DNA of 64,000 nucleotides from an uncultured Acidimicrobiaceae bacterium (GTDB lineage: Bacteria > Actinomycetota > Acidimicrobiia > Spongiisociales > ZC4RG35), in assembly GCA_964571765.1 (NCBI GenBank), contig CAZNDH010000001.1, forward strand, positions 30,773 through 94,772. Reading direction: 5' to 3'. Position 1 is the first letter of the stretch; the number at the start of each line of letters is the position of its first letter. Made by a program: the position numbers and the translations under genes. The notes beneath the pieces are model-generated. The model was not told where the DNA came from, did no database searches, and saw only the letters and a program-made list of their open reading frames with translations. Below, one piece after another: positions 55,019-64,000 of the stretch.

Positions 55019-56164
55019 TCAGAGAGTGGTCGCTGACTCCTCTTGGGTGGGAGTCAGGCCCAGTTCCTGGGAGCGCTGTACCCATCGGGCGACGTCGCGG
55101 GGAGTGATGATCCCGAGAATCTGGCCGTCGTCGACCACCAACACCCGATCCTGGTCCTGCTCCCGAAGCCTCTCCATGACCCGGTTCATCGGTGTCGCCG
55201 GCTCAACGGTGCATGCGTCCTCGAGGTCGGTCATCGCGCTCCACACCTGACGGACTCCCCACTGGTCCTTGGGGATCTGGCGCACCGCCCTCAGTGTCAC
55301 CAACCCGGAACGGTCCTCTGAGACCACAGGGAAAGCCGAATGGTCGTAGCGGAGGAAATATTCGTCGACTGCCTGCTCAACGGTGGTATCGAAGGGGATG
55401 CTCACCAGCTCCGGTGTCATCAGATCGGCGGCGGTGACGTCCTCGAGAAAGGACCGGACCACCACGTCCTGGTCGGCGGCACTCGCCGCCTGGAGCAGGA
55501 ACCAACCAATGGCCGCCATCCATAGGCCACCCAGATCGCCCCGGAACACCGAAAATATCCCGATGGCAATGAGGAGCGAGGCGATCACCCGGCCGCCCCG
55601 GGCAGCCCCACGAGTCGCCGAGACGAGATTTCCTCTGACCTTCCACAGGATGGAGCGGAGCACCCGCCCCCCGTCCAGGGGGAATCCGGGCAACAGGTTG
55701 AACACGCCGAGGAGAAGGTTGAGCCACCCCAGGTAGCCGAGAGGGAACAGGACCAACGGGCTGAGCACACCTGATCCCAGTGTCACCACCAGCCAGAAGG
55801 CCGCGGCCAACAGCAAGCTGGTCAGCGGTCCCACCACTGCGATCAGGAACTCATCGCGGGGCTTGCTCGCCTCCATCTTCATCTTGCTCACTCCACCGAA
55901 GAGGAAGAGCGTGATCCCCTCGACCTCCACCCCGAGACGACGGGCCATAACCGAGTGGCTCAGCTCGTGGAGCAGCACCGACCCGAAGAACACCAGGGCG
56001 GTCGCCCCGGCCATCACGATGAGAACACCCTGGTCGAGATCCTCGAAACGCAAGGCAAACTGGAGGTAGAACGACCAGCTGAAGAGAAAGGCGATCACCA
56101 GCCAGGACGGGTCGATGCTGATCTCGATCCCAAAAACCCGGCCGATACGGAGACCTTTGATCAT
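55019..56164 (-). CDS. site-2 (M50) protease with CBS pair
   Basis: HELSH, FNLLPGFPLDGG, two CBS domains. Confidence 0.92.
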   Translation of the reverse strand: MIKGLRIGRVFGIEISIDPSWLVIAFLFSWSFYLQFALRFEDLDQGVLIVMAGATALVFFGSVLLHELSHSVMARRLGVEVEGITLFLFGGVSKMKMEASKPRDEFLIAVVGPLTSLLLAAAFWLVVTLGSGVLSPLVLFPLGYLGWLNLLLGVFNLLPGFPLDGGRVLRSILWKVRGNLVSATRGAARGGRVIASLLIAIGIFSVFRGDLGGLWMAAIGWFLLQAASAADQDVVVRSFLEDVTAADLMTPELVSIPFDTTVEQAVDEYFLRYDHSAFPVVSEDRSGLVTLRAVRQIPKDQWGVRQVWSAMTDLEDACTVEPATPMNRVMERLREQDQDRVLVVDDGQILGIITPRDVARWVQRSQELGLTPTQEESATTL

Positions 56165-56268
56165 GCGAAGGGACCCAGACGGCTCATTCGAGACGAATCT
56201 ATCGGCTGCCGTGGGGTAGGGGTGCGGCTTTGGCGCCGGAGCGGGTCGATCCTTAGCCTTGGCCGGAC

Positions 56269-57402
56269 ATGCGACTTGCCGTCCCAGCCGAGCCGAGGGG
56301 AGAGCGTCGCGTCGCGATCACCCCTCAAGTGGCATTGAGGCTCGTCGAGAGCCGCCACGTTCTCCGGGTGGAGACCGCCGCCGGGTCCGGAGCCGGGTTC
56401 AGTGACGAGCAGTACCGCGATGCCGGAGCCGATGTGACCCCCGACCCCTTTGCTGGGACCGAGGTCGTCCTGGTGGTCGGACCTCCCACCCTCGACCAGG
56501 TCGGTCAGGTGCCAGAAGAGGCCACTCTGATCGGCTTCCTCGACCCTTTTGGCAACCCCGACCTGATCCGACTGCTCACCGACCGGAGGATCACCTCGTT
56601 CGCCATGGAGGCCATCCCCCGTTCTACGGTGGCCCAGGGCATGGACGCCCTCTCCTCGCAGGCCACCGCCGCCGGCTATGCCGCGGTCCTGGCCGCGGCC
56701 GGCGCCTCCCCGAGGATCTTCCCCATGCTCACCACCGCGGCTGGAACCATCCCCCCGGCCAAGGTCCTCGTCCTCGGTGCAGGGGTCGCTGGCCTGCACG
56801 CCATCGCCAACTCCCGGCGTCTGGGAGCGGTGGTGTCCGCCTACGACATCCGGCCCGAAGTCAAGGAGCAGATCGAGAGCCTTGGCGCCCGGTTCATCCC
56901 GGCACCGGTCGACGAGTCGGCAGCCACCGCCTCAGGCTATGCCAAGGAAGTCTCCGACGAGACCCAAAGACGGCAGATGGACGCCCTGGCGCCCCATGTC
57001 GCCGCGGCAGACGTGGTGATAACCACCGCCCAGGTCCCGGGACAGCCCGCCCCTCTCCTCATCTCCCGGGAGATGGTCGAGGCGATGAGCCCCGGATCGG
57101 TGATCGTCGACGTGGCTGCACCCGGAGGAGGCAACTGCGAGATCACCGAGCCGGGACGGACGGTCACTCACAATGGGGTTACCGTCCTCGGCCCGCTCGA
57201 CCTCGCCGGGCGGGTGGCCGTTGACGCCAGCCACATGTATGCCCGAAACGTGGTCGCCTTCCTCGAGCGGTTGACCGACGAGGAAGCCAGGCTCGCCCCG
57301 GATTTCGACGACGAAGTCACCTCCGAGGCCTGCATCACCCGTGAGGGACGGGTGGTGCACCCGGTGGTCCGCCGACTCCACCACCTGGATGAGGAACCGT
57401 GA
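56269..57402 (+). CDS. pntA: NAD(P) transhydrogenase subunit alpha, part 1
   Basis: ERRVA, MDALSSQ, TAAGT, GAGVAG, GGNCE. Confidence 0.92.
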   Translation: MRLAVPAEPRGERRVAITPQVALRLVESRHVLRVETAAGSGAGFSDEQYRDAGADVTPDPFAGTEVVLVVGPPTLDQVGQVPEEATLIGFLDPFGNPDLIRLLTDRRITSFAMEAIPRSTVAQGMDALSSQATAAGYAAVLAAAGASPRIFPMLTTAAGTIPPAKVLVLGAGVAGLHAIANSRRLGAVVSAYDIRPEVKEQIESLGARFIPAPVDESAATASGYAKEVSDETQRRQMDALAPHVAAADVVITTAQVPGQPAPLLISREMVEAMSPGSVIVDVAAPGGGNCEITEPGRTVTHNGVTVLGPLDLAGRVAVDASHMYARNVVAFLERLTDEEARLAPDFDDEVTSEACITREGRVVHPVVRRLHHLDEEP

Positions 57403-57707
57403 GCCCGCTGATCGTGGGGGTCACCGTGTTCGTCCTCGCTGCCTTCGTCGGACTCGAGGTGATCTCCAAGGTGCCCCGGACCCTCCACACCCCGCTGATG
57501 TCGGGGGCCAACGCCATCTCCGGGATCACGGTCATTGGTGCGGTCACCGCAGCCGGCGTGGGAGCGACTCCCCTGGCCCAGGTCCTCGGGTTCCTCGCGG
57601 TGGTCACCGCCACCATCAACGTGGTCGGCGGGTTCCTGGTCACGGATCGGATGCTGGGCATGTTCCGCCGTCCCACTTCGAAGCGTGCAGAAGACGACGA
57701 GGCATGA
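57399..57707 (+). CDS. NAD(P) transhydrogenase subunit alpha, part 2
   Basis: LHTPLMSGANAISG, NVVGGFLVTDRMLGMF. Confidence 0.92.
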   Translation: MSPLIVGVTVFVLAAFVGLEVISKVPRTLHTPLMSGANAISGITVIGAVTAAGVGATPLAQVLGFLAVVTATINVVGGFLVTDRMLGMFRRPTSKRAEDDEA

Positions 57708-59071
57708 CCGAGATCCTCTACCTGGGTTGCGCGGTCGCCTTCATCGTCGGCCTCAAGCGACTCAGCGGCCCCCGCACCGCCCGATCGGGGAACATGATGG
57801 CCGCCACCGGAATGCTGGTGGCCATCGTGGTCACCCTGGTCGATCAGGAGATCGTCGACTGGAGGATCGTCCTCGGTGGCCTGGCCCTGGGAGCGGCCAT
57901 CGGCGCCTGGGCGGCTCTCAGGGTGCAGATGACCGCCATGCCTCAGATGGTCGCACTCCTCAACGGATTCGGTGGCATCGCCTCTGCTCTGGTCGCCGCC
58001 GAGGTTGTGGTGTCGACCGGACTGGTCACGGTGGCCACCGAGACAAGCGTGACCATTCTGGTTTCCACGTTGATCGGAGCGGTCACCTTCACCGGGAGCC
58101 TGGTGGCCTTCGCCAAGCTCCAGGGTCTGGTAGGAGGGAGCCCTTTCCTCTACCCCGGTCAGAGGGCGATCAACGCCCTTCTCGCCCTCACCGTGTTCGG
58201 ACTGGCGATCTGGGCGCTGGTGGCCGGGTCGACCTCCGGCTACTGGCTGATGGCGGCGGCGGCCCTGGTCGTCGGGATCCTCGGCGTTGTTCCCATCGGT
58301 GGTGCCGACATGCCGGTGGTGATCTCCTTGCTCAACTCGTTCTCCGGGCTGGCTGCATCGGCAGCGGGCTTCGTGATCTCCAACAACGCCCTGATCATCG
58401 GGGGCGCCCTGGTCGGGGCGGCCGGGCTGATCCTCACCATCCAGATGACCGAGGCCATGAACCGCTCGCTGGCCAACGTGCTCTTCGCCGGCTTCGGAGC
58501 AGTGGGCCCGGGTGGCCCGACAGCCGGACTCTCCGGCCGACCGGTCAATGACGCCGACGCCGACGACGTGGCGATCGCCCTGGGGTACGCCGATCGGGTG
58601 ATGATCGTCCCCGGGTACGGACTGGCGGTGGCCCAGGCCCAACATGCCGCCCGCGACCTGGCCACCGCTCTCGAGGAGCGGGGGGCCGTCGTGCACTTCG
58701 CCATCCACCCGGTGGCGGGGAGGATGCCTGGGCACATGAACGTGCTACTCGCCGAGGCCGACGTCCCCTATGAGCAGTTGCTCGATCTGGAACAGGCCGA
58801 CCCCCAGATGCCCCAGACCGACGCGGTGCTCATCCTCGGGGCCAACGACGTGGTCAACCCGTCGGCCCGTGACGACCCGGCATCGCCCATATACGGGATG
58901 CCGATCCTCAACGCCGACCGGGCCGGGCGGGTCATCGTGGTCAAGCGGAGCCTCTCCCCCGGCTTCGCCGGCATCGACAACCCCCTCTTCTACAACGACA
59001 ACACCCTGATGTTCTTTGCCGATGCCAAGGAGGCCTTGGAGCGGATCCTGATCGCTCTCCAGGAGATGTGA
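57704..59071 (+). CDS. pntB: NAD(P) transhydrogenase subunit beta
   Basis: MTAMPQMVA, IGGADMPVVIS, HPVAGRMPGHMNVLLAEA. Confidence 0.95.
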   Translation: MTEILYLGCAVAFIVGLKRLSGPRTARSGNMMAATGMLVAIVVTLVDQEIVDWRIVLGGLALGAAIGAWAALRVQMTAMPQMVALLNGFGGIASALVAAEVVVSTGLVTVATETSVTILVSTLIGAVTFTGSLVAFAKLQGLVGGSPFLYPGQRAINALLALTVFGLAIWALVAGSTSGYWLMAAAALVVGILGVVPIGGADMPVVISLLNSFSGLAASAAGFVISNNALIIGGALVGAAGLILTIQMTEAMNRSLANVLFAGFGAVGPGGPTAGLSGRPVNDADADDVAIALGYADRVMIVPGYGLAVAQAQHAARDLATALEERGAVVHFAIHPVAGRMPGHMNVLLAEADVPYEQLLDLEQADPQMPQTDAVLILGANDVVNPSARDDPASPIYGMPILNADRAGRVIVVKRSLSPGFAGIDNPLFYNDNTLMFFADAKEALERILIALQEM

Positions 59072-59073
59072 GG

Positions 59074-59730
59074 TCAGCCGATCGATCTGCGCCGCAGCAT
59101 CGCGTTGTTCTTCCAGTTGCCGGCGTTGTGCCATAGCCGCTTCCGATCGACCTTGACCAGCTCCTGGGTGGGTCGCTCGTCGGAGCCGAGTTGGGTGGCC
59201 AGCGCCTTGAGGGTGTGCCGCCACATCCAGTCCTCACCCTTTCCCATCCCGAAGACGAACCCGATATCCCAGATCGGGTCGCTTGCCCGGATCAGGAGCT
59301 GCACTTCGGCGATCGACCCGTTGTCGGTGGGTGCCGCCGAGAAGGTGATCCACCCGGCGAAGGGGTGGCCTTCCGGGGTCATGAAGCTGAATGAGGTGTC
59401 GTCGGCGTAGATCACCACCACCCCGGTCGAGAGCACCTGCATCGAGTCGATCGATCCGACCTCCCCCGGTTTGATCCCGGCGACGGGTGCGTTGAACTTG
59501 CTTATCGAGGGCCAGAAGTCGCCGTAGTTGGCCTTCCAGGTGGAGATCACCGCCGCCGGGTCGTGTCCGGGGATCCCGATGCGATATGTCTTCTGCCACA
59601 ACGCTCCGAAGCCCTGCTGGGGTCCGTTGAGCCTCCGTCCTTCCAGATGCCCCGCCGCCCCGGTTATGGCCTCGATGGGCTGAGCCCACGCCCTCCCATC
59701 GTCTTCGCTGTTGTTTTCGCCGTTCGACAT
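59074..59730 (-). CDS. hypothetical protein (possibly DUF1990/START-like fold)
   Basis: QGFGALWQKTY and FMTPEGHPFAGWITFSA; last gene of the STAS operon; fold assignment is a guess. Confidence 0.6.
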   Translation of the reverse strand: MSNGENNSEDDGRAWAQPIEAITGAAGHLEGRRLNGPQQGFGALWQKTYRIGIPGHDPAAVISTWKANYGDFWPSISKFNAPVAGIKPGEVGSIDSMQVLSTGVVVIYADDTSFSFMTPEGHPFAGWITFSAAPTDNGSIAEVQLLIRASDPIWDIGFVFGMGKGEDWMWRHTLKALATQLGSDERPTQELVKVDRKRLWHNAGNWKNNAMLRRRSIG

Positions 59731-59764
59731 GGCGTCATTGGACGACCCGGCCGCTACTGCAGCG

Positions 59765-60937
59765 TTACGCACCCGTTCCGGTATCGCCGGCCAGCCACAC
59801 CGTCACCGACTCGGGGGAGAACACTTCCGACACCATGGACTCGGCGCGGGCGGTCACCTCCTCCAGATCCAGAGACCCCCGCAACTCCTCGGCGACCCGG
59901 GCCACCACCACCGAGGCGTCATAACGCGACCTGAAAAACCTTCGGTCTACCACCCGCTGCACCCGCCGCACCAGAGGCAGGAAAGCCAACGCCACCACCA
60001 GGGTCGACACCGCCACCGGCAGATCACCCTCCACCGGGAACAGCTCGCGCAGACCGACCACCAGACCGGCGTAGGCCAACCCCAACACGCCCACAACCAA
60101 CAGGTAGGTCACGGTCCGGGACATCAGCCGGTCGATCTCGAACAGCCGGTATCGGAGCACCGCGGCCACTATCGAAAGAGGGATGATGCTGAAGGTGAGC
60201 AGGAAGAGGTTCTGCGCTACCGGCCGGTCGCCGAGCACATACCTCCCCACCGGGGTGAACGACAGGAGAACCAGACCGGCCACGATGCCCAGAGCCAGGG
60301 CCACCCATTTGATCTGCTGCCTCTCCACCACGGTGGCATGGCGAATACGCGCCACCACAGATGCAACGGCACCCACGATCCCCACTGCGAGCGTGGGATT
60401 GACGATCCACCATGTCGCCGATTCGTCGCCCAACACTTGCTCCCAAGGCAGGGTGAGGGTTTCGACGCTGGCCCCGATCAAGCCACCGACCATCCCCACT
60501 CCGGCGACGACTGCCACCCACCTCCACACCGGCGTGGGAGGTCGTCCGGTGGGGAACAGCAGAGGGAGGATCACCGCCAGCAGGAACAGCACCGGAACCC
60601 AGGCGAACCCGATCCACACCGCCACGAGCCGGCCCAATACACCGAGTTCGACACCCTCGACCTGGCGGGCATCGAGGACCAGGGCGATCCAGATGTTGCT
60701 CAGGCACAGACCGATTCCGAGCAGGACCCAGCCGACACGGTTGCCCGTCCGCCACACCACGAACCCTCCGGTCGCGGCAAACACCAAGCCGATCGCTGTA
60801 GACACCAGCACTTGCGACTGAACTGGCAGATCGGTCGTGGTGAGGAAACCGGAGAACGGCCAGATGGCGGCCACCAGCGAAGTCGCGCTGAGCGCCACAC
60901 CACCCGCAGAAGCCACCCGGGCTACTCGGCCAGCCAT
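59765..60937 (-). CDS. multi-pass membrane sensor-like protein, paralog A
   Basis: Many TM segments, GNRVGW, LLFPTG, RQQIKW, RYRLFEID, DRRFFRSRYDA. Confidence 0.8.
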   Translation of the reverse strand: MAGRVARVASAGGVALSATSLVAAIWPFSGFLTTTDLPVQSQVLVSTAIGLVFAATGGFVVWRTGNRVGWVLLGIGLCLSNIWIALVLDARQVEGVELGVLGRLVAVWIGFAWVPVLFLLAVILPLLFPTGRPPTPVWRWVAVVAGVGMVGGLIGASVETLTLPWEQVLGDESATWWIVNPTLAVGIVGAVASVVARIRHATVVERQQIKWVALALGIVAGLVLLSFTPVGRYVLGDRPVAQNLFLLTFSIIPLSIVAAVLRYRLFEIDRLMSRTVTYLLVVGVLGLAYAGLVVGLRELFPVEGDLPVAVSTLVVALAFLPLVRRVQRVVDRRFFRSRYDASVVVARVAEELRGSLDLEEVTARAESMVSEVFSPESVTVWLAGDTGTGA

Positions 60938-61313
60938 ACCGTCACCGACTCGGGGGAGAACACCTCGGACACCACCGTCTCGGCCCGGGCGGTCACATCC
61001 TCGAGATCCAACGAACCCCGCAACTCCTCGGCGACTCGGGCCACCACCACCGAGGCGTCATAACGCGACCTGAAAAACCTTCGGTCTACCACCCGCTGCA
61101 CCCGCCGCACCAGAGGCAGGAAAGCCAACGCCACCACCAGGGTCGACACCGCCACCGGCAGATCACCCTCCACCGGGAACAGCTCGCGCAGACCGACCAC
61201 CAGACCGGCGTAGGCCAACCCCAACACGCCCACAACCAACAGGTAGGTCACGGTCCGGGACATCAGCCGGTCGATCTCGAACAGCCGGTATCGGAGCACC
61301 GCGGCCACTATCG
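59801..61313. repeat. direct repeat of the 3' coding module of paralogs A and B (59801-60174 and 60940-61313)
   Basis: 59898-60174 is identical to 61037-61313 (277 bp, offset 1139); a diverged third copy lies at about 62107-62460. Confidence 0.92.
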
Positions 61314-62082
61314 CCGTCGGGAGAGCCCAGAAACCGGCTATTACAACTACTCCGAGGAGCGCGTCACTGACCGTCATCCCCACACCCGTCAGGGGAGAAG
61401 AGATGACCGCGAAGAGGGCGATCAGGAAGAGCGCTCCGGCGATGAAGACTTTTATCTGCGCCCGCTCAACTCCGGTCGACCGACGGAAGCGAGTCACGAG
61501 CACTACCACTCCGACCACTCCACCGACAACCACCACGGCGAACAGGGCACTGACAAGCCCGACGATCCAGACAGGCCCGACACCCAAGGGGTTGTCCCGT
61601 AGAGGGAGCCTGTCGATCCCAGCGCTGACATCGAGCGAGCCGGGGCGAATCAGAAGGAACAGCGGCATCACGATCAGCGTCATCACCGTCACCCACCTCA
61701 GGGTCAAGCGCGGCCAACCGGGAAGCGTCTCACCGGTGGGGAAGACATAGAGCAGTGCCACCATCCCCCAGAAGGTCACCACCACACTTGCCGACACCAG
61801 GAGTTCGAGATAGGGGCTCCACCAGGCATCGAACCAGGTCATCGCCATCCATCCGCCCAGAAACGAGAATCCCGCCGCGGCGCCGATCGCCAGGAGCACC
61901 CTCCCTACCCGATTCCCCGGGCGCTGAATGAGGATGAGGGAGGCGGCCAGGGGGAATGGCATCAAACCCAATGGCCACACCCAGTCATCGGGGTTGGTCG
62001 ACGCCGGGATGATCACCTCGAGGAGGATGGCCCCGGTGGCGACGGCGGCCCACCCGAGATGGAGGACCACACGACGGCTCAT
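60922..62082 (-). CDS. multi-pass membrane sensor-like protein, paralog B
   Basis: Same motif order as paralog A, divergent N-terminal two-thirds. Confidence 0.8.
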   Translation of the reverse strand: MSRRVVLHLGWAAVATGAILLEVIIPASTNPDDWVWPLGLMPFPLAASLILIQRPGNRVGRVLLAIGAAAGFSFLGGWMAMTWFDAWWSPYLELLVSASVVVTFWGMVALLYVFPTGETLPGWPRLTLRWVTVMTLIVMPLFLLIRPGSLDVSAGIDRLPLRDNPLGVGPVWIVGLVSALFAVVVVGGVVGVVVLVTRFRRSTGVERAQIKVFIAGALFLIALFAVISSPLTGVGMTVSDALLGVVVIAGFWALPTAIVAAVLRYRLFEIDRLMSRTVTYLLVVGVLGLAYAGLVVGLRELFPVEGDLPVAVSTLVVALAFLPLVRRVQRVVDRRFFRSRYDASVVVARVAEELRGSLDLEDVTARAETVVSEVFSPESVTVWLAE

Positions 62083-63281
62083 CGGCCGTGCTCGACGACC
62101 CAGATGGCCAGGGTCTCGGGGGAGAACACCTCGGACACCACCGTCTTGGCTCGGGCGGTCACCTCATCCAGATCCAACGAACCCCGCAACTCCTCGGCGA
62201 CCCTGGCCACCACCAAAGCCGCGTCATAACGCGACCTGAAGAACCGCCGGTCCACCACCCGCTGCACCCGGCGCACCAGTGGCAGGAAGGCCAGCGCCAC
62301 CACCAGGGTCGACACCGCCACCGGTAGATCCCCCTCCACCGGGAACAACTCACGCAGACCGACCACCAGACCGGCATAAGCCAACGCCAAGAGACCCATC
62401 ACCACCAGGTATGTCACCGTGCGGGAGACCAAACGGTCGATTTCGAACAGGCGGTAGCGCAGGACAGCGATTCCGATCGCCACCGGGATGACCCAGATGG
62501 AGAGGGCGAAGGCCAGATCGACCAGCGGGTCGAGTGCATCGCCTGACGCCGGGCCCATGGCGACCGCCGAGAAGGTGGCGACGAACAAGGCGACGGCGGA
62601 CAGCAACCACTTCAGCTGCTGGCGCTCGGCGGCGCCAGCCCGCCGGTATCGGACCGCCATCCCGACCACACCTGCGATGGCCAGGATGAGCAGGCCCGCG
62701 GTCCAGATGGCGTTGAAGACCACGCCGAAGAACCCCTCGGGTATGAACCCGATCGGGTTGGGCACGGTCCAGGACCCGTGCCCCAGCTCCCGGGCGAGGG
62801 CGCCGGTGACGAGGAGAAAGACGATCATCGAGAGCTCGAGCCGGACCAGCCAATTCCATCGATCGGACAAGAGCCGCCCCGTGGGGAAAACCAGTAAGAG
62901 GTGGAATAGGGGGAAGATGAGCCCCATCCAGCTGATGCTGGCTGCCCACAGCGTGAGGAGCACCAGGAACCCGACTTCAGGTGGTGGGCCGTCGCCGGCG
63001 CCGATGACCATGGCGAACAAGGGATCCAACACCGTGATGAGTGCCGGGAGGAAGAGCAGCCAGCCGATGACGTTGCGTGGTTGTCTGGAGACGATGATCG
63101 CCGCCACCAGGGCGAACGGCAAGGGGAGCAAAGCCCAGCTGCCCAGCGCCATGGCTTCGGCGACCGTGCGCGGCTGTGCCGGATCGACGATCCATTGGAA
63201 GATCACGCCAACGACCACCAGCCCTGCGGCCAGCCACACCAGTCGACCTGACAGGGGTGTTGGGTGACCTTTCCCCATCAT
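62079..63281 (-). CDS. multi-pass membrane sensor-like protein, paralog C
   Basis: PRNVIGW, LVFPTG, RQQLKW, RYRLFEID; stop overlaps the paralog B start (ATGA). Confidence 0.8.
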   Translation of the reverse strand: MMGKGHPTPLSGRLVWLAAGLVVVGVIFQWIVDPAQPRTVAEAMALGSWALLPLPFALVAAIIVSRQPRNVIGWLLFLPALITVLDPLFAMVIGAGDGPPPEVGFLVLLTLWAASISWMGLIFPLFHLLLVFPTGRLLSDRWNWLVRLELSMIVFLLVTGALARELGHGSWTVPNPIGFIPEGFFGVVFNAIWTAGLLILAIAGVVGMAVRYRRAGAAERQQLKWLLSAVALFVATFSAVAMGPASGDALDPLVDLAFALSIWVIPVAIGIAVLRYRLFEIDRLVSRTVTYLVVMGLLALAYAGLVVGLRELFPVEGDLPVAVSTLVVALAFLPLVRRVQRVVDRRFFRSRYDAALVVARVAEELRGSLDLDEVTARAKTVVSEVFSPETLAIWVVEHGR

Positions 63282-63361
63282 CGGATTCCCCCGGAGGCGG
63301 CACGGCCCCAAACGCGGATCCCTGCCTCACCAGTGGTAGGAAGAGGATCCAGCACCTCGGG

Positions 63362-63685
63362 TCACTCAGTGAGTGCCTGGGCGGCGTCGGCGTAGACGGG
63401 GATCGCTTCGTCGAGCCTGGTTAGCGAGAAGATCTCCCGGTAGTGGTCGTCGAGCCCGCATGCCACCAGCCGGACACCGGCGCGCTGGGCCCGGACCAGA
63501 GTGGTCACCAGCAGACCGATCCCGGTGCTGTTCATGTAGCCGAGTCTCGAGAAGTCGAGGACGACAGTCCCGTGGTCCTTCGCCGCCTCGAAGGCGGCCC
63601 CGAGGGCCTCCTCGGCGGCGGCGGTGAGGTCGCCCGACAGGGAGATGACTCCCCCATCGACTTCGGTGATCAGGTCTGTGCTCAT
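63362..63685 (-). CDS. STAS-domain anti-sigma factor antagonist
   Basis: LDFSRLGYMNSTGIGLLV, GLDDHYREIFSLTRLD. Confidence 0.9.
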   Translation of the reverse strand: MSTDLITEVDGGVISLSGDLTAAAEEALGAAFEAAKDHGTVVLDFSRLGYMNSTGIGLLVTTLVRAQRAGVRLVACGLDDHYREIFSLTRLDEAIPVYADAAQALTE

Positions 63686-64000
63686 TCCCTTCCTCCACTC
63701 GCTACGGCTAGAGCCGCTTCTTGATCGTCGGTGACGGCGATGAACTGGTCGAGATGGGTTATCTCGAACACATGCCGGTAGTGGTCGTCCAGCCCTATGG
63801 CGGCCACCGCCGTCCCCCCGCCGCCGGCCGCACTGACCAGGCGGACCAACAGCGCCAGACCGCTCGACGAGATGAACCCTGTCCCGGCGAAGTCGAGGAC
63901 CACCCCTTCAACGCCGGCCAGAGAGCCCTCGAGCTTGGAGAGGGGTGCATCGGCATCGCGGTCCAGGTCGCCCGCGAGACGAGCCAGCAGCACCGGGCCT
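63682..64000 (-). CDS. STAS-domain anti-sigma factor antagonist (5' end probably outside the window)
   Basis: LAGDLD, LDFAGTGFISSSGLALLV, IFE-like VFEITHLD. Confidence 0.85.
   Translation of the reverse strand, partial: GPVLLARLAGDLDRDADAPLSKLEGSLAGVEGVVLDFAGTGFISSSGLALLVRLVSAAGGGGTAVAAIGLDDHYRHVFEITHLDQFIAVTDDQEAALAVASGGRE

Follow-up and report, generated by a model that had tools for sequence, protein, structure and literature searches.

Bacterial multigene families can evolve in concert through gene conversion, as is familiar from tufA/tufB and from the rRNA operons. In Neisseria pilE/pilS and Borrelia vlsE, a single expressed gene receives its variable part from silent partial cassettes. 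RsbR proteins are laid out as a variable N-terminus followed by a conserved STAS domain, and the N-terminal sensor domain of the Mycobacterium tuberculosis protein Rv1364c is presumably a PAS domain. An excerpt of PMC8223754 states the principle of concerted evolution by gene conversion, and an excerpt of PMC11821858 names four paralogous RsbR proteins in the Bacillus stressosome. At the level of abstracts, the literature yielded no report on the sensor family considered here, on kinase-less HisKA_7TM-like sensors with PP2C, or on domain-specific conversion among them.

We analyzed a window of 64,000 nucleotides (the whole stretch of DNA under study) from an uncultured Acidimicrobiaceae bacterium. 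Gene conversion among the tail copies of three of its genes, termed A, B and C, is well supported by comparison of their sequences. It is likely, taking both parts of the claim together, that the three genes encode kinase-less sensors in a partner-switching operon and that RecA-type conversion keeps their shared-output tail uniform.

Gene layout and sensor proteins

The features referred to below are as follows; positions are those of the window, except for the last entry, which lies outside it.

59074-59772, minus: 232-aa ORF, last operon gene, DUF1990-like (a lead only)
59765-60937, minus: gene A, 390-aa multi-pass membrane protein, putative kinase-less sensor module (ORF and family matches)
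59765-60163, minus: tail module of A (alignment, tail HMM)
59898-60174, minus: 277-nt block in A, identical to B (longest common substring)
59913-59984, minus: segment of the A tail with 11 differing sites in contigs from other studies
60922-62082, minus: gene B, 386-aa paralogue (ORF, AF2 model, full-length homologues at 60-67% identity)
60922-61302, minus: tail module of B (alignment, tail HMM, AF2 helices)
61037-61313, minus: 277-nt block in B, identical to A (longest common substring)
62079-63311, minus: gene C, 410-aa paralogue (ORF; orthologue P0041 at 70% identity)
62079-62468, minus: tail module of C (DNA 86% identical to A and B, differences mostly synonymous)
63362-63685, minus: STAS-domain gene, anti-sigma-factor-antagonist type, directly upstream of C (Pfam STAS_2, 1.1e-14)
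63682-64000, minus: second STAS gene, truncated by the window end (Pfam)
G000:C1:94801-96297: partial-GAF/SpoIIE/HATPase_c_2 gene, upstream of the second STAS gene (Pfam on L047:502-2043)

The order on the minus strand is partial-GAF/PP2C/RsbW-like kinase, STAS, STAS, C, B, A and the DUF1990-like ORF. A, B and C are each full-length, overlapping and co-oriented, with their own start codons, and none of them is a silent cassette. Adjacent genes overlap: the end of B and the start of A share 16 nt, the stop of C and the start of B 4 nt, and the end of A and the start of the 232-aa ORF 8 nt. Database gene calls give A as 383 aa and C as 400 aa. Pfam and NCBIfam scans of the 232-aa ORF found no family above noise; its tentative label comes from an Atlas score of 0.97 to clusters with DUF1990 in 10-13% of members, and a counterpart lies downstream of the sensors in 6 other genomes. 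All inverted repeats within 56000-64000 are at most 34 nt long and at most 85% complementary.

Scans of A, B and C against Pfam (E ≤ 1) and NCBIfam identified no family above noise. The AF2 model of B (pLDDT 89, pTM 0.80) predicts about 10 TM helices, a long juxtamembrane helix and a short helix, with the last 11 residues unstructured. The tail consists of the last two TM helices, the juxtamembrane helix with an RRFFRSRYDA motif, and then the helix and strand that begin a GAF domain (predicted tail helices in B: H267-301, H308-356 and H360-375). In a wide structure search, residues 24-265 of the model aligned with many 7TM proteins, all of them generic bundles, with a best Z of 10.9 (rmsd 3.9, 199 residues aligned), which is below the level taken as specific for helical bundles; Foldseek against the PDB returned nothing at E ≤ 0.001. 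All three proteins fall below the gathering threshold of HisKA_7TM (PF16927); among 87 aligned relatives, 8 reach E ≤ 0.01 against this model, and P0092 scores 29.4 bits against a cut-off of 28.6. Pfam finds neither a HisKA-type dimerisation domain nor HATPase_c in A, B or C; fused relatives carry both kinase domains, and of two paralogues on contig C22 of the same genome both have HisKA_3 and one has HATPase_c as well. The family is large, comprising 20,247 clusters at 50% identity (E ≤ 0.001).

Tail identity within the genome and among relatives

A, B and C share a 3' tail of about 390 bp, which a repeat finder reported as one 300-nt family with copies at 59788, 60927 (96%) and 62093 (86%), spaced by 1139 and 1166 nt. 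The longest exact match between A and B is 277 nt (59898-60174 = 61037-61313). It lies in an alignable stretch of 387 nt with 13 mismatches and no gaps, all 13 mismatches being 3' of the block in the gene sense; counted along the tail, the first A-B difference falls at position 287. Upstream of 60174/61313 the alignment breaks down: the N-terminal parts are 31% (A-B), 28% (A-C) and 28% (B-C) identical, as against 98, 88 and 87% for the tails. At the DNA level, C is 85.9% identical to A over 355 nt and 85.6% identical to B over 383 nt. Synonymous and non-synonymous divergence was estimated by the Nei-Gojobori method; the frame used for A-B is 276 nt long and extends 7 nt beyond the exact block. 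This frame holds 1 synonymous difference, which falls just outside the exact 277 nt, and 0 non-synonymous differences; in the 3' remainder (the next 99 nt) the A-B dS is 0.46. The same gene pair presents a tract of near-zero dS beside diverged homologous sequence. For A-C and B-C, the block contains 31.5-32.5 synonymous and 9.5 non-synonymous differences (dS 0.53-0.56, dN 0.05). If the flanking divergence of about 12% per site applied throughout, the chance of 277 consecutive matches would, by our own arithmetic, be roughly 1e-15, so that the A/B identity is far beyond chance. The 3' ends are mosaic: of the 13 sites in the last 110 nt where A and B differ, B has the letter of C at 8. Conserved residues use identical codons at 72 of 107 positions in A-C and 77 of 108 in B-C, where about 45 would be expected from codon usage.

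An earlier, sequence-only reading had described the 277 bp shared by A and B, synonymous sites included, the abrupt end of identity at 60174/61313, and a nearly identical tail in C that differs synonymously; all three descriptions are borne out by these comparisons. Its suggestion of recent gene conversion gains support from the dS of about 0 in the tract, the 5' boundary at the end of homology and the mosaic 3' ends, as well as from the G008 gene pair and the genome-wise clustering of tails described below. The same reading had looked to copies of the block elsewhere in the genome, and no further DNA copy of the tail was found in the 2.17-Mb, 79-contig assembly.

Trees and nearest-neighbour counts were computed for 51 family members from 13 related genomes. 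The tail tree requires 17 changes of genome label (shuffled labels, 38.6 +/- 1.6), and the N-terminal tree requires 37 (shuffled, 38.8 +/- 1.6). Genome-wise tail clades have SH-aLRT support of 87-99, and the N-terminal types form old orthogroups common to several genera (SH-aLRT 90-99). The nearest tail lies within the same genome for 42 of the 51 members, the nearest N-terminal domain for 8; paralogues are thus closer than orthologues for the tail part only in this 51-member comparison. The tail is not merely slow-evolving, because B and its orthologue in the congener G005 are 46% identical in the N-terminal domain and 49% in the tail; orthologous tails in that congener are 47-49% identical. 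The whole operon recurs in G005, where the orthologues of B and A follow one another as they do here, although the proteins are less than 50% identical. A neighbouring gene pair in same-genus G008 has an independent exact tail run of 347 nt, and a gene pair in G013 has one of 122 nt. Family matches range from 0 to 20 per related genome, and since copy number varies so widely, unequal recombination over evolutionary time is likely. Tail conversion seems to be a general feature of a large, uncharacterised family of sensors found in operons with one phosphatase-kinase switch. Part of the genome-wise tail clustering could stem from lineage-specific duplication, or from co-adaptation without DNA exchange, where older events are concerned. 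A scan of metagenome contigs for closer relatives gave one confirmed locus (L031) from 274 pattern matches and no DNA of the 60-70% orthologues.

The phosphatase-kinase and its partial GAF domain

The PP2C-kinase matches SpoIIE (1.3e-44) and HATPase_c_2 (7e-20) in Pfam (L047:502-2043), and among solved structures it is closest to the RsbU-RsbW part of Rv1364c (3KE6; E 1.1e-20, 24% identity over 376 columns). A partner-switching set, consisting of a PP2C phosphatase, a HATPase_c_2 kinase and two STAS genes, is encoded together at this locus. The PP2C-kinase orthologue shares a contig with family members in 12 of 13 genomes; in the remaining one, G002, the large sensor array and the PP2C gene are on separate contigs. 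When two sensor-less congeners were tested for the PP2C-kinase, none was found in G009 (E ≤ 1e-20) and just a 35% partial PP2C in G003. A divergent BTAD/AAA_16-type regulator, identified by Pfam, adjoins the PP2C gene in G001 and G006, and the G000 ORF L047:2126-4690 is homologous to it.

Each sensor ends with roughly the first 30 residues of a GAF domain, and the GAF domain at the N-terminus of the phosphatase is missing that stretch. The phosphatase's own GAF matches span profile positions 49-135 only, and in its AF2 model the long linker helix is preceded by no more than a beta-hairpin and a 2-residue bridge (DSSP E35-36). P0214, a fused protein, matches Pfam GAF (profile 1-133) at residues 364-469, and the sensor-tail HMM ends within that match, at residue 390. 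In 13 of the 13 fused kinases that the PP2C N-terminal HMM matched (domain E ≤ 0.01; 29 tried), it did so only downstream of the tail match. A GAF start in the tail and a phosphatase GAF without its start suggest a putative shared docking tail. A natural sensor-GAF-PP2C fusion was not found: the only candidate, P0263 (1410 aa), was rejected as a frameshifted read-through of two sensors and PP2C with garbled linkers and, being a read-through of neighbouring genes, is evidence of adjacency only.

We propose that A, B and C are paralogous sensor modules, each joining a variable N-terminal domain of 7TM type to a constant tail, which would be co-transcribed within the minus-strand partner-switching operon. 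Recurrent gene conversion of the homologous (RecA-type) kind among the tandem copies would keep the tail uniform within the genome, and each conversion tract would stop at the junction with the N-terminal domain, where homology ends, because the N-terminal domains are only about 30% identical. The tail would serve the alternative sensors as a shared output or docking element for signalling to the single PP2C-kinase, and conversions in it would be tolerated or favoured, with the sensing domains remaining free to diverge. In its most specific form, the proposal has the C-terminal helix and strand of the sensor supplying the missing start of the truncated GAF domain. That many sensors complete the GAF domain of one switch in trans in this way, with conversion keeping the tails matched to their partner, is a tentative idea; such matching of docking tails to one partner would explain the genome-specific tails across the family.

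Gene conversion between tandem bacterial paralogues is already known; what is unusual here is its confinement to one module and its recurrence across an uncharacterised family. If the tail is a shared docking part, the locus would offer a natural case of recombination enforcing compatibility of many inputs with one output, and a hint at the signalling route of kinase-less 7TM sensors. Tail swaps between genomes could then serve to probe partner-switching specificity in uncultured Actinomycetota.

Metagenome contigs, alternative readings and known systems

Logan contigs (k=31) of four runs, X1, X3, X8 and X16, were compared with the window. X1 and X3 come from two other soil-metagenome studies, and only their contigs cover the gene A tail junction; X8 and X16 cover the locus in part and come from more divergent populations. 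Over 59000-63400 the X1 and X3 contigs equal the window except for 11 clustered substitutions; X3 also differs at 62649.

The sequence-only reading had further proposed a diversifying repertoire, in which recombination through the constant module, programmed or selected, adds, swaps and deletes N-terminal receptor cassettes across strains. The range of 0 to 20 copies per relative, arrays of at least 7 (G002:C47) and about 13 (G030:C3), the many contigs of relatives that start or stop within family genes, and one low-support joint in X16 (59870 to 63088; depth 2.7, side 22) would all fit such shuffling. However, that joint is of a type against which the contig comparison tool cautions, and contigs of X1 and X3 bridge the A/B junction (60145-60978) with no joint in either run; at the C/B junction only 27 nt (62145-62171) lie between the X1/X3 contig records. 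The N-terminal types are ancient orthogroups that cross genera, G005 retains the entire operon with B followed by A, and each of the three genes is complete and has its own start. These observations tell against the repertoire, and we consider cassette shuffling unlikely. Programmed variation of the pilE/pilS kind was also rejected, since three complete ORFs with start codons form one operon and it is the constant part that is copied.

An identity of A and B made during building of the metagenome-assembled genome is a second, quite unlikely, alternative, and it draws on the 11 substitutions. These lie at 59913-59984 in gene A, are carried by both X1 and X3, and comprise 10 synonymous changes and S342G. 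At these sites the window letters equal B, and the X1/X3 letters match B at 0 of 11 and C at 2 of 11. In the A context, the window's version of 59898-59984, including its letters at 59913-59984, is absent from X1 and X3, the two covering runs, and no listed run has more than 0.96 of the sampled words. Against an artefact, 190 nt (59985-60174) still equal B in independent k=31 contigs from two studies, and contigs from the unique parts of A and of B enter the same shared sequence. A k-mer assembler, we reason, needs reads to join the unique 3' end of A to B-type letters 16 nt off, and G008 shows tail identity independently. B-context contigs of X1 and X3 (61006-61153) have 0 differences from the window. 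Contig depth is 17-21 in the shared segment and 12-16 in the flanks, figures without use for copy number because each contig has a single depth that sums other organisms. Assembly collapse, which the sequence-only reading had named as a danger to itself, is partly in play, for only 87 of the 277 bp, where X1 and X3 contradict the window by the 11 differences; the other 190 bp are confirmed by the contigs of both runs.

Since part of the 277-nt identity is absent in X1 and X3, the latest conversion event may be a consensus error. The 11-site cluster reflects either such an error or a very recent, still polymorphic B-to-A conversion, and X1/X3 and the window possibly hold the before and after alleles of one event. 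If both alleles are real, a conversion has been caught still segregating in soil populations. A cluster look-up found no second source for the S342 or G342 allele, A, B and C each being a single-member cluster.

Purifying selection with codon bias, keeping tails alike without any DNA exchange, is a most improbable account. In its favour, constraint on the tail is strong (dN/dS about 0.09 in comparison with C), GC3 is 0.83-0.87, and many metagenomic proteins with unrelated N-termini have an almost identical tail peptide. The 0 synonymous differences over 277 nt beside a dS of 0.46 in the same gene pair rule it out for the A-B block; the low identity of the congener's orthologous tails also tells against it, and the excess of identical codons exceeds what codon usage gives.

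Gene conversion of a constant tail, the reading we prefer, can be set beside several described systems. Like GAF-HisKA_3 (NarL-type) sensor kinases, with whose N-terminal ~400 residues sensor and tail align end to end, A, B and C have the sensor-tail module, also found in the two C22 kinases; unlike them, they lack a kinase and extend only about 30 residues into the GAF domain. Like Rv1364c, a multidomain RsbU-RsbW(-RsbV) protein (PDB 3KE6), the PP2C gene fuses a phosphatase with an anti-sigma-type kinase, whereas here the STAS domains are two separate genes and the N-terminal domain is a truncated GAF. As with the RsbR paralogues, variable-N, conserved-C sensors would feed one PP2C/RsbW-type kinase/STAS cascade; here, however, the sensors are polytopic membrane proteins without STAS, their link to the phosphatase is putative, and the constant part is two TM helices with a juxtamembrane helix. 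The locus resembles pilE/pilS and vlsE in conversion between tandem related sequences with constant and variable parts, but at this locus it is the constant part that is copied, and the copies are all full genes of an operon. It shares with tufA/tufB and the rRNA operons non-reciprocal copying between paralogues within a genome, paralogues more alike than orthologues, and tracts with a dS of about 0. Unlike in those families, one module is homogenised while the other two thirds are about 30% identical, and the pattern recurs across the family in at least 13 genomes.

The shared tail of three tandem sensor genes

Three tandem, co-oriented genes for paralogous membrane sensors, A, B and C, each combine a variable N-terminal domain with a constant 3' tail. 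They overlap at their ends (C/B by 4 nt, B/A by 16 nt), and two STAS genes lie upstream of them on the same strand.

Gene A: 59765-60937, minus strand; ORF of 390 aa
Gene B: 60922-62082, minus strand; ORF of 386 aa
Gene C: 62079-63311, minus strand; ORF of 410 aa
Exact A/B block: 59898-60174 = 61037-61313, minus strand; 277 nt, the longest exact match
232-aa ORF: 59074-59772, minus strand; last gene of the operon, overlapping A by 8 nt, no Pfam match
PP2C-kinase: G000:C1:94801-96297 (the window's own genome, just past the window end), minus strand; 499 aa, SpoIIE (PP2C), HATPase_c_2 and partial GAF; heads the operon

The 3' ends of A, B and C form a direct repeat family of 300 nt. A and B are alignable over 387 nt with 13 mismatches, every one 3' of the exact block in gene sense, and their DNA alignment is lost upstream of the block. 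The tail of C matches those of A and B at about 86% at the DNA level; B and C also have an exact run of 32 nt in common near their 3' ends (60949-60980 = 62115-62146). Protein identity is 28-31% among the N-terminal parts and 87-98% among the tails. By the Nei-Gojobori method, the A-B frame, which extends 7 nt beyond the exact block, contains one synonymous and no non-synonymous difference, the one falling outside the exact 277 nt; dS is 0.46 in the A-B 3' remainder, and 0.53-0.56 (dN 0.05) for A-C and B-C within the block. Every element of the array as described in a sequence-only reading is present, far beyond chance. A search for the block elsewhere found no further DNA copy of the tail in the whole assembly (2.17 Mb, 79 contigs).

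The tails have a mosaic history of several events. For C, codons are identical at 72/107 and 77/108 conserved tail residues, compared with some 45 predicted from codon usage, and at 8 of the 13 sites near the 3' end that distinguish A from B, B has the letter of C, suggesting a separate exchange between B and C in that region.

The locus is present in part in 17 public sequencing runs, all organism-labeled ones being soil metagenomes. For four of them, each from a different study (X1, X3, X8 and X16), Logan contigs were compared with the window. X1 and X3 show no differences from it in records covering 60145-60978, 61006-61153 and 61284-62144; in the record at 62172-63400, X1 matches in full and X3 has one difference. 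One X3 record (22; 61569-61678, depth 4.2) has 8 letters other than the window's. In X1 and X3 alike, the contig running from 59000 through the unique 3' end of A carries 11 substitutions at 59913-59984 and stops at 60014, inside sequence shared with B; none of the X1 or X3 contigs has the window's letters at 59913-59984 in the context of A. Only these two runs cover the junction at the tail of A, which X8 and X16 contigs do not reach. Of the 11 changes, 10 are synonymous and the other is S342G; they agree with B at no site and with C at 2. The variant therefore has the look of a real A allele, unconverted and filtered by selection, whose divergence from B, about 12%, is that of the flank.

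Assembly collapse, named beforehand as a way in which the identity might prove false, does not account for 190 nt (59985-60174) over which A and B are identical in the X1 and X3 populations; over the other 87 of the 277 bp the identity is contradicted there by the 11 substitutions, and it is provisional, needing confirmation at the read level. By reasoning, we favor a second conversion from B to A in the assembled strain, very recent, still polymorphic and spanning 72 nt or more. The less favored possibility, that the assembly consensus is wrong for the 87 nt, would have the unique end of A joined to B-type letters 16 nt away, which a k-mer assembler could not do without reads containing the junction.

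Concerted evolution among relatives

Family matches occur, often as tandem arrays, in 22 of 41 genomes (the window's own and 40 relatives); G027 and G038, both unpublished, count in this tally but support no claim here. Only ORFs whose tail match was complete were kept, 56 members from 15 loci of 13 published genomes; trees were built from 51, after dropping the kinase of contig C22 and four members that had under 180 residues upstream of the tail. The tail tree has 17 genome-label changes (minimum 12; shuffled labels 38.6 +/- 1.6) and the N-terminal tree 37 (shuffled 38.8 +/- 1.6). Genome-wise tail clades have SH-aLRT support of 87-99. The N-terminal tree contains well-supported groups that cross genomes, with B beside one G005 and one G023 member (support 90 and 99), A beside a G005 member (94) and C beside a G030 member (96). 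The nearest tail is in the same genome for 42 of the 51 members, the nearest N-terminal domain for 8. Identity between B and its G005 orthologue is 46% for the N-terminal domain and 49% for the tail, so across species the tail diverges at the pace of the sensor domain; inside this genome it is nevertheless 87-98% identical.

In G008, of the same genus, two adjacent genes share an exact run of 347 nt (367 nt with 2 mismatches), and one gene pair of G013 shares a run of 122 nt. The dS contrast, the tail and N-terminal trees and these tracts bear out the earlier proposal of recent gene conversion, which appears to be the right mechanism and a recurrent property of the sensor family; concerted evolution of the tails is probably general in it. 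Many contigs of relatives begin or end inside a family-gene tail (e.g. G014:C183:5-307, G023:C53:5-244 and G007:C104:1-171). Near-identical tails would break short-read assemblies in this way, so copy numbers in relatives are probably underestimates.

The same reading had also envisaged that receptor cassettes are added, swapped or deleted, giving a diversifying repertoire. This found no support. G005, of the same genus, has the same order of PP2C-kinase, STAS, STAS, three sensors and 232-aa ORF, its second and third sensors being orthologues of B and A, and every copy is a complete gene. In both X1 and X3 a contig spans the A/B junction (60145-60978), only 27 nt (62145-62171) lie between the listed records in the C/B junction region, and no rearrangement joint was reported in either run across the region compared. 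The data examined gave no indication of a programmed or rapid cassette system. Copy number varies widely among more distant relatives, so unequal recombination over long times is likely.

One X16 contig joins the 3' end of A (59870) to the N-terminal region of C (63088), skipping 3217 nt; this joint, with a depth of 2.7, 22 nt on its shorter side and 6 extra letters, is too weakly supported to call a deletion allele. Among the seven sensor genes of G002, a cupredoxin-domain ORF (L032:5122-5892; contig C47) lies mid-array.

A putative partner-switching operon and its sensors

Among solved structures, the PP2C-kinase is best matched by the RsbU-RsbW portion of Rv1364c from M. tuberculosis (3KE6, E 1.1e-20). 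In 12 of 13 genomes the orthologue of the PP2C-kinase lies on a contig that also carries family members; in G002 it is on a separate contig. Of two sensor-less congeners tested, G009 has no PP2C-kinase orthologue at E<=1e-20 and G003 has just a 35% partial PP2C. Within the DNA examined around the loci, the STAS pair recurs in 9/13 genomes and the 232-aa ORF in 7/13. The STAS pair, the PP2C/HATPase_c_2 protein and their co-occurrence with sensors suggest that the operon is a module of the partner-switching type, served by one to many membrane sensors. In G001, G005, G006, G017, G030 and G037 the 232-aa ORF immediately follows the final sensor gene; in the Atlas it adjoins clusters with DUF1990 in 10-13% of members. 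Counterparts of an 854-aa ORF beside the PP2C-kinase gene have BTAD and AAA_16 domains in G001 and G006.

854-aa ORF: L047:2126-4690 (locus of the window's genome), plus strand; divergent from and adjoining the PP2C-kinase gene
Two kinase-fused sensor paralogues: G000:C22 (L046:1354-6793); adjacent to genes for a receiver-cyclase and a LuxR-type response regulator

Pfam and NCBIfam gave no family match for A, B or C, and PF16927 (HisKA_7TM) is touched by 8 of 87 aligned members. The family is very large, with proteins of about 400 aa: a word-indexed search gave 868 matches among 7,999 candidates scored, the few organism-named ones being from Acidimicrobiia or Nitriliruptor, and an exhaustive search gave 20,247 cluster representatives at E<=0.001 (2,693 at E<=1e-30). 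Closer strains hold orthologues at 60-70% identity (P0002-P0009). The AF2 model of B (pLDDT 89, pTM 0.80) has about ten TM helices, beyond which a long helix (308-356) exits the membrane, followed by a short helix (360-375) and 11 disordered final residues. Over residues 24-265 the model is similar to 7TM bundles in general (best Z 10.9, not a specific match), and a Foldseek search with it returned nothing significant. Longer relatives carry the same module fused to GAF, HisKA_3 and HATPase_c, or to GAF and a nucleotide cyclase, and A, B and C are thus kinase-less sensor modules. Two such kinase fusions are the C22 paralogues, one with weak GAF, sub-threshold HisKA_3 and HATPase_c matches and the other with HisKA_3 alone; their tails are of a different type, without homogenization with A, B and C.

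In P0214, one of the fused relatives, the Pfam GAF match (profile 1-133) spans residues 364-469. The sensor-tail profile matches 29/29 fused proteins, ending at residues 367-429 (390 in P0214), and the PP2C N-terminus profile hits 13 of these 29 at domain E<=0.01, in every case lying 23-43 residues past the tail match. The PP2C-kinase's own GAF matches cover profile positions 49-135 only. Ahead of the phosphatase, its AF2 model (pLDDT 86) shows a pair of short helices, a strand of two residues, a single beta-hairpin and the long linker helix, which leaves too few strands for a GAF sheet; the sensor C-terminus, in the model of B, consists of one helix and an unpaired terminal segment. The sequential profile matches and the partial GAFs suggest that sensor and PP2C-kinase are collinear with one continuous sensor-GAF unit. 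The tail may be the shared output or docking part of the sensors, possibly docking by completing the phosphatase's GAF in trans. If the tail were a docking part, that role would account both for the restriction of tolerated conversions to the tail and for the genome-specific character of the tails.

Gene conversion itself is already known, for example for tuf and rRNA genes, and is not the novelty here. The novelty lies in concerted evolution confined to one domain, in an uncharacterized sensor family that is very large and linked to an Rv1364c-like switch; none of the titles and abstract openings searched described it. The operon's PP2C-kinase resembles the RsbU-RsbW part of Rv1364c, and the layout of RsbR, the domain order of Rv1364c and the pilE and vlsE systems provide the further comparisons.
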